This document shows, piece by piece, positions 43,626 through 44,288 of a stretch of 64,000 nt of DNA. The position numbers were made by a program, and so were the translations under genes. Source of the DNA: Escherichia coli. Its GTDB lineage: Bacteria > Pseudomonadota > Gammaproteobacteria > Enterobacterales > Enterobacteriaceae. Where the stretch lies: NCBI RefSeq assembly GCF_016026235.1, contig NZ_CP065613.1. One strand, given 5' to 3'. Below the pieces are notes generated by a model. It had not been told where the DNA came from and did no database searches. It worked only from the letters and a program-made list of their open reading frames with translations. How positions within the stretch are numbered: position 1 is the first letter of the stretch; each line of letters begins with the position of its first letter.

Positions 43626-44288
43626 ATGTTGCGCATTATCGATACAGAAACCTGCGGTTTGCAGGGAGGGATCGTTGAGATTGCCTCTGTTGATGTCATT
43701 GACGGAAAAATCGTCAACCCCATGAGCCACCTGGTGCGCCCCGATCGTCCTATTAGTCCACAAGCGATGGCGATTCATCGCATCACCGAAGCCATGGTCG
43801 CCGATAAACCGTGGATTGAAGATGTGATCCCACACTATTACGGCAGTGAATGGTATGTCGCGCACAACGCCAGCTTTGACCGCCGCGTACTGCCTGAGAT
43901 GCCCGGTGAGTGGATTTGCACCATGAAACTGGCCCGTCGCTTGTGGCCAGGAATCAAGTACAGCAATATGGCGTTATATAAAACACGGAAGCTCAATGTA
44001 CAGACGCCGCCGGGCCTGCATCATCACCGCGCGTTGTATGACTGTTATATCACCGCCGCGTTGCTTATCGATATTATGAACACCTCCGGCTGGACGGCAG
44101 AACAGATGGCCGATATCACCGGACGTCCGTCGTTGATGACGACCTTCACCTTTGGCAAATACCGTGGCAAAGCGGTTTCCGACGTTGCCGAACGCGATCC
44201 GGGCTATCTGCGCTGGTTATTTAATAACCTGGACAGCATGAGCCCGGAGCTGCGTTTAACACTGAAACATTATCTGGAAAATACTTAG
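43626..44288 (+). CDS. exoX: exodeoxyribonuclease X (DnaQ-like 3'-5' exonuclease)
   Basis: Recognised as ExoX; start taken at [11 protein letters not shown] (DEDD exonuclease motif I). Confidence 0.85.

Follow-up and report, generated by a model that had tools for sequence, protein, structure and literature searches.

Where two genes converge with no DNA between their reading frames, how is transcription of each brought to an end, and does one interfere with the other? The question arises for exoX and ptrB in a 64,000-nt stretch of Escherichia coli chromosome (contig NZ_CP065613.1), referred to here as a whole as the window. A sequence-only reading of the window had held that the two genes overlap by 2 bp at their stop codons and share no terminator space, and had taken this to imply transcriptional read-through or interference.

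Two full-length genes ending in one tetramer

The exoX coding sequence, encoding exodeoxyribonuclease X (220 aa), occupies 43626..44288 on the + strand, and ptrB, encoding oligopeptidase B (686 aa), occupies 44285..46345 on the - strand. By both open reading frames and RefSeq annotation, the genes lie on opposite strands with 3' ends facing. The annotated exoX start is ATG 43626; the TTG given in the open reading frame list, at 43572, sits upstream. In RefSeq, exoX is preceded by yobB (42946..43602, + strand), the upstream gene of what has been written as a yobB-exoX operon, with a constitutive sigma-70 promoter in the holE-yobB spacer (PMC3946193). An RpoS SELEX site has been reported upstream of ptrB (PMC5493296).

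ExoX matched the NCBIfam equivalog model PRK07983 over residues 1-219 of 220 (463 bits) and PtrB matched PRK10115 over residues 1-686 of 686 (1602 bits), both far above cut-off. The two are genuine full-length genes, not over-extended predictions. Because both proteins match their models end to end, neither stop is mis-assigned, and the one weakness that the sequence-only reading had named for itself, a mis-assigned stop, is excluded. RefSeq annotates the same geometry in strain FDAARGOS_943, in K-12 MG1655 (exoX 1926120..1926782, ptrB 1926779..1928839) and in three further strains. Of 5,426 complete E. coli genomes, 5,425 contain a match to window positions 43500-45000, which are 100% identical to FDAARGOS_943.

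At the junction the + strand reads GAA AAT ACT TAG T, with T44285, T44286, A44287 and G44288. In the exoX frame, ACT (44283-85) is followed by the stop TAG (44286-88). The ptrB stop TAA, the reverse complement of TTA at 44285-87, closes the 686-aa frame 44285..46345. Both are the first in-frame stops of their frames, and sequence and reading frames agree with the stop positions originally given. The claimed 2-bp overlap is correct for the stop codons, which have 44286-87 in common, but not for the annotated coding sequences, which overlap by 4 nt. This TTAG tetramer (44285..44288, either strand) holds both stops and is polymorphic, TTAG or TTAA, in E. coli.

The reverse complement of TAA/TAG begins TTA/CTA, and a Y-TA-R tetramer closes the reading frame on both strands. 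Once the stops are set aside, the sense codons of exoX and ptrB do not overlap, and each stop covers just the wobble base of the opposing gene's final sense codon. Because wobble base stands opposite wobble base in this phase, the overlap constrains either protein almost not at all; it carries no coding cost.

The surrounding DNA holds several other features. The same 9-kb K-12 stretch contains a second spacer-less convergent pair, yebW (+) and pphA (-), with a 0-nt spacer ~4 kb from exoX/ptrB (122-970 of the K-12 locus L002, at about window 39115/39116). This pair also appears in the published excludon list (PMC12288877). On the - strand, a copD (yebZ)-yebY fusion forms a 381-aa open reading frame at 40952..42097, with its junction near 41294-41311. 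The last 22 codons of copD, its stop and the 12-bp spacer have been lost through an in-frame deletion of 81 bp between short TGGAT repeats, and the fused frame joins CopD residues 1-268 to full-length YebY including the signal peptide. The deleted CopD segment is hydrophobic, and YebY's hydrophobic signal sequence takes its place. Each of the 5,425 complete E. coli genomes that match has the undeleted form, among them FDAARGOS_943, which is otherwise near-identical; over the 382 bp compared, the matches listed fell into two pieces and none reached at least 99% identity. Beside the fusion lies an IS1 copy at 40000-40767 (left inverted repeat at 40000, insA and insB frames at 40055-40752), with a second IS1 end at 9059. 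It interrupts the sdsR/ryeA sRNA locus, severing the first dozen or so nucleotides of sdsR and its promoter side, and as a result of the insertion Rfam gives RyeA twice (39903-40049 and 40732-40831). In FDAARGOS_943 a prophage integrase adjoins yebY instead of the IS1-interrupted locus.

The junction in other strains and species

The 84-nt junction is identical in ~2,218 of 5,294 complete genomes. In ST131 and other E. coli strains the alignment contains G44288A, which converts the exoX stop from TAG to TAA and the ptrB codon GAC to GAT (Asp), and both effects are silent. For a wider comparison, 80 species loci with ExoX were taken, and both stops were placed in the 77 Enterobacteriaceae loci that have both genes. 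The coding sequences overlap by 4 nt at 34 of the 77 (27 TTAA, 3 CTAG, 3 CTAA and 1 TTAG), by 19 nt at 22, and by other lengths at four (10, 14, 15 and 143 nt, the 143-nt locus having a frameshifted tail). Spacers of 0-12 nt separate the genes at 16 loci, and a 38-nt spacer occurs at one, Salmonella arizonae. Additional loci gave 4-nt overlaps in Cronobacter and Erwinia sorbitola, a 4-nt spacer in Pantoea and a 34-nt spacer in Salmonella enterica. Pooled, 62 of 81 loci from other species overlap (36 by 4 nt, 22 by 19 nt) and 17 have 0-12 nt spacers, Klebsiella having 3-6 nt; spacers of 34-38 nt are confined to Salmonella. Rahnella carries exoX in a different gene context.

The 4-nt and 19-nt states are both present within Citrobacter, Enterobacter and Kosakonia. 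Where exoX ends in TGA in place of TAA/TAG, the ptrB stop is abolished and ptrB runs 15 nt on, to end at a CTA/TTA inside exoX's conserved His-Tyr codons. Since a TGA in exoX destroys the ptrB stop, a single transition toggles the overlap between these two lengths with the phase kept. Nowhere in the junction alignment is variation greater than in the PtrB tail. We read the tight exoX/ptrB junction as old and drifting neutrally. To judge from these comparisons, its geometry is inherited rather than a chance coincidence of this window.

Individual loci showed further peculiarities. In Salmonella, ExoX is 12 aa longer (232 aa) and PtrB 3 aa shorter (L084 3699-3734; L033 4196-4235), and a GC-rich hairpin, CCCGCGACG...CGTTGCGGG, lies in the 34-38-nt spacer, with UUAUUGUGGUGUU after it on the ptrB strand; the terminator scan made no call there. 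This spacer looks like one re-created by a small insertion. The ptrB tail of Intestinirhabdus alba lies in another frame and extends 143 nt into exoX before a stop (L030 4021-4163), either as a real frameshifted extension or through an assembly error. An Enterobacteriaceae exoX-ptrB locus, its ExoX 90% identical, turned up on a contig labelled Chryseobacterium sp. 18061, and on that account the assembly is probably mislabelled or contaminated. In a metagenome-assembled genome labelled Raoultella the junction is almost the same as that of Citrobacter braakii. Pantoea sp. BAV 3049 has ptrB in two open reading frames, probably as a pseudogene.

Transcription across the junction

The terminator scan called no canonical intrinsic terminator within ~600 nt of the exoX/ptrB junction, and on neither strand there is a GC-rich hairpin directly followed by a U tract. 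The junction does fold. A GC-rich stem-loop at 44288..44329 coincides exactly with the last 14 sense codons of ptrB and begins, on the + strand, at the G of the exoX stop TAG. Its predicted free energy is -24.6 kcal/mol on the + strand (z -3.3 to -4.0, 57% of the ensemble) and -20.6 kcal/mol on the - strand (about -21; z -2.3), and no other 50-nt window in the entire ptrB region is as stable on either strand (rank 0 of 195). On the + strand the stem-loop is followed by CAGAAAAGCAUAUUCC, with no U tract, and then by sequence with C in excess of G. Part of the stem derives from conserved PtrB codons (LAQ, LPG).

Across 82 loci the junction window had a median stability at the 7th percentile and ranked in the top 5% of its own ptrB region in 44%; z was below -2 in 38% of + strands and 29% of - strands, in species that are related to one another. 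RNAalifold on 79 sequences returned no consensus junction structure. An Enterobacter-type hairpin gave 73.6% pairing versus 26-43% in slid controls, with covariation that was weak and not significant. Some E. coli strains in the alignment carry substitutions that weaken the stem.

Rho-dependent 3' ends have been described immediately past stable stem-loops that have no U tract, and rut sites follow a short way downstream (Dar & Sorek 2018, PMC6061677). Because a stem-loop without a U tract and C-over-G sequence downstream reproduce this architecture, the stem-loop at 44288-44329 may protect the 3' end of exoX mRNA. The Term-seq tables of PMC7815308 have no entry for a steady-state 3' end at the base of the stem or anywhere in exoX/ptrB, for which low expression could account.

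Two other candidate structures were rejected. A long-range inverted repeat, GGCGTAGCG (44295-303) with CGCTACGCC (44348-56), appeared in a 151-nt fold and was set aside as chance: the variable PtrB tail contains its 5' arm, and the pairing is neither kept nor compensated in other Escherichia, Citrobacter or Enterobacter. Within exoX, the near-perfect palindrome GGTTATTTAATAACC (44215-44229, codons W-L-F-N-N) forms the center of a longer imperfect inverted repeat. The long hairpin around it is broken in Intestinirhabdus and Salmonella and is not conserved in other genera.

The assertion that the genes share no terminator space holds in that there is no intergenic DNA, but a terminator exists, inside antisense ptrB. 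According to supplementary file 2 of Adams et al. 2021, + strand transcription undergoes Rho-dependent termination in a region antisense to ptrB that peaks at MG1655 1927253 (Rho score 6.3, p 3.4e-10; PMC7815308). Without bicyclomycin, + strand reads fell from 82 upstream of this position to 12 downstream; in its presence the counts were 140 and 129 (PMC7815308). The peak maps to window 44759, 471 nt past the exoX stop, a coarse position since the Rho score was computed over 800-nt windows. It falls within the strongest C-rich, G-poor, rut-like stretch antisense to ptrB (44689..44928, + strand), where C/G reaches 1.9-2.1 at +401..+640 past the exoX stop, the 95th-99th percentile of window background. 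The first rut-like stretch with C in excess of G lies just 3' of the stem-loop (44309..44408, + strand), with C/G of 1.5-1.6 in 80-nt windows at +21..+120, at about the 90th percentile. These rut-like calls are a compositional proxy only, the C/G ratio.

The published bicyclomycin data thus have the exoX transcript stopped by Rho inside ptrB, and with the Rho peak antisense to ptrB, the + strand termination signals are embedded in the coding sequence of the neighbor. The Rho-terminated + strand RNA could instead originate from an antisense promoter rather than the yobB-exoX promoter. A promoter-like site at 44256-44285 (+ strand) scores 9/12, in a region with fewer such sites than shuffled sequence, which is chance level.

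The predicted read-through has been borne out: the + strand transcript enters antisense ptrB (PMC7815308), and exoX-ptrB is listed among 165 convergent excludons detected in at least 50% of 58 MG1655 transcriptomes (PMC12288877). The strand-specific RNA-seq proposed as a check is in effect already published, and the transcripts overlap (PMC12288877). Overlapping 3' ends were also reported for 276 of 370 convergent E. coli operons (PMC4161252). Interference between exoX and ptrB is a possible consequence; a full-text literature search found no data on their mutual repression.

For the opposing transcript, supplementary file 2 of PMC7815308 has no entry for a Rho region on the minus strand antisense to exoX. 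RNA past the ptrB stop has a C/G of ~1.1 or lower for the first ~560 nt and 1.35-1.6 thereafter. Its first stretch with C in excess of G lies at the 5' end of exoX (43605..43724, - strand; ~560-680 nt past the ptrB stop). With no C-rich stretch for ~560 nt, ptrB read-through could cover all of exoX. In the same area the terminator scan gave a weak terminator-like hairpin at 43665..43651 (- strand), CCTGCAAACCGCAGG then TTTCTGTATC. Closer to the ptrB stop, 3' of the stem-loop, the transcript contains a weak, displaced U-rich tract, AAGUAUUUUCC (44276..44286, - strand), which is antisense to the last codons of exoX and is not conserved in other genera; the scan did not call this site terminator-like. 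Farther along, published Term-seq recorded a minus-strand 3' end antisense to holE, at MG1655 1925232. It corresponds to window 42738 (- strand), a site with neither hairpin nor U tract, and could mark the end of ptrB RNA that has read through exoX and yobB, or belong to a separate antisense RNA.

Explanations for the spacer-less junction

Collectively, the data are very probably those of an ordinary tail-to-tail overlap, in which full-length genes meet in TTAG, the stop codons drift neutrally and Rho terminates within antisense ptrB, with an exoX end that we infer to be protected by the stem-loop and any regulatory consequence only hypothetical. The spacer would have been lost earlier, presumably through the deletion bias of bacterial genomes, and the spacer-less junction would have persisted since, flipping among a few discrete lengths by neutral stop-codon drift. 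The yobB-exoX transcript passes the exoX stop into antisense ptrB, where it is no longer translated, and Rho ends it within ~0.5 kb, as the published bicyclomycin data show. The Rho-terminated exoX mRNA would then be trimmed back to the stem-loop and protected there. In the ptrB transcript the stem-loop recurs with AAGUAUUUUCC after it, and the combination may act as a weak intrinsic terminator; failing that, the ptrB transcript would run antisense through all of exoX before meeting a C-rich stretch. The exoX and ptrB mRNAs thereby overlap.

It is unlikely that the stem-loop at 44288-44329 itself terminates one or both genes, whether as a weak intrinsic terminator for ptrB (hairpin plus AAGUAUUUUCC) or as the pausing hairpin of a collision-type bidirectional terminator. 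The position of the structure coincides exactly with the overlap, and nothing else in ptrB is as stable on either strand, but on the + strand it has no U tract and Rho-dependent control lies further downstream (PMC7815308). On the - strand the U tract is short, displaced and not conserved, and the site went uncalled in the terminator scan. Location within coding sequence has precedent, since rho-independent terminators are predicted there for 23 of 116 convergently overlapping E. coli genes (PMC2174442); this hairpin, however, lies inside the translated ptrB frame, so that ribosomes would tend to melt it on ptrB mRNA. Many species have a stable hairpin at the junction, which falls among the top 5% of windows in 44%, yet covariation is not significant. 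Bidirectional terminators of convergent genes use an overlap-region hairpin and look unlike intrinsic terminators (bioRxiv 10.1101/2022.10.23.513370), and collision-type examples such as ynaJ-uspE (Ju et al. 2019; Wang et al. 2022, bioRxiv 10.1101/2022.10.23.513370) likewise combine a convergent pair with a hairpin at the meeting point. They are described as Rho-independent and lie between gene boundaries, whereas at exoX/ptrB the + strand is Rho-dependent, the hairpin is in coding sequence and expression is low. The collision model is said to suit highly expressed pairs best (bioRxiv 10.1101/2022.10.23.513370), and exoX and ptrB are weakly expressed.

Distinctly unlikely is a functional excludon, in which the zero-spacer arrangement has been selected because overlapping transcription makes expression of the two genes mutually exclusive, through transcriptional interference or RNase III cleavage of the sense-antisense duplex, with exoX expressed for example in growth and ptrB in stationary phase. 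The promoter types do differ, sigma-70 and constitutive for yobB-exoX (PMC3946193) versus an RpoS SELEX site at ptrB (PMC5493296), but the literature search found no experiment that shows reciprocal expression. The pair is indeed listed among convergent excludons (ExcludonFinder, NAR 2025, PMC12288877), which it resembles in being convergent with overlapping transcripts in most MG1655 transcriptomes. Overlap of the coding sequences forces any tool based on overlapping coverage to list the pair, and for that reason the listing is weakly informative. In classical excludons the overlapping UTRs are long and reciprocal repression has been demonstrated, whereas the overlap at exoX-ptrB is forced by coding-sequence geometry. 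A ptrB read-through of ~560 nt without a C-rich stretch could span all of exoX; reads for both genes were nevertheless low in one dataset (82 per 800 nt), so that polymerase collisions would be rare. The tight junction has been kept across Enterobacteriaceae into Erwiniaceae, and its near-universal lack of a spacer over long evolution could also reflect selection rather than neutrality. Against selection, the junction is altered in Salmonella (34-38 nt plus a hairpin) and Klebsiella (3-6 nt), Rahnella has exoX elsewhere, and both overlap length and tail residues are free to drift.

Less probable still, the stem-loop might be a selected dual-use element, at once the PtrB tail and an exoX 3'-end hairpin for protection or for pausing and collision, and the reason that the genes stayed fused in Enterobacteriaceae as well as Erwiniaceae; in that case a DNA-repair exonuclease (sigma-70) and a protease (sigma-S) would be expressed reciprocally through the overlap. 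An artefact, with one stop misplaced by sequencing error, frameshift or wrong annotation, is refuted: thousands of complete E. coli genomes share the sequence and its annotation, ExoX and PtrB match curated equivalog profiles to their last residues, and 60 of 77 other Enterobacteriaceae species have this overlap or an equivalent one.

An ordinary tail-to-tail overlap also places exoX/ptrB in a known class. [quoted passage not shown] A rho-independent terminator, inside coding sequence, was predicted for 23 of the 116 E. coli genes that overlap convergently (20%; PMC2174442). The exoX/ptrB geometry is identical to the 4-bp class of Lillo & Krakauer (PMC2174442), uses TTAG and, like most members, lacks a canonical rho-independent terminator. 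There is no essential difference from that class; what is added here is the spacer-less state across Enterobacteriaceae and Erwiniaceae and the toggle between overlaps of 4 and 19 nt. The exoX end resembles those of Dar & Sorek 2018 (PMC6061677) in its stem-loop without a U tract after the stop, C-rich and G-poor sequence downstream and a bicyclomycin-sensitive region. It differs from them in that all of these elements lie inside the opposing coding sequence and none of the mapped 3' ends falls at the stem.

As a member of a well-described class that annotation already records, the overlap is of low interest. Its significance is little, and would grow only if the hairpin or the overlap were shown to couple expression of exoX and ptrB. 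The junction is nonetheless a clean textbook example of convergent genes that share stop codons without coding cost, of signals in a neighbor's coding sequence, namely a Rho-dependent region and possibly a protective hairpin, that replace an intergenic terminator, and of junctions that drift among discrete overlap lengths via single substitutions.
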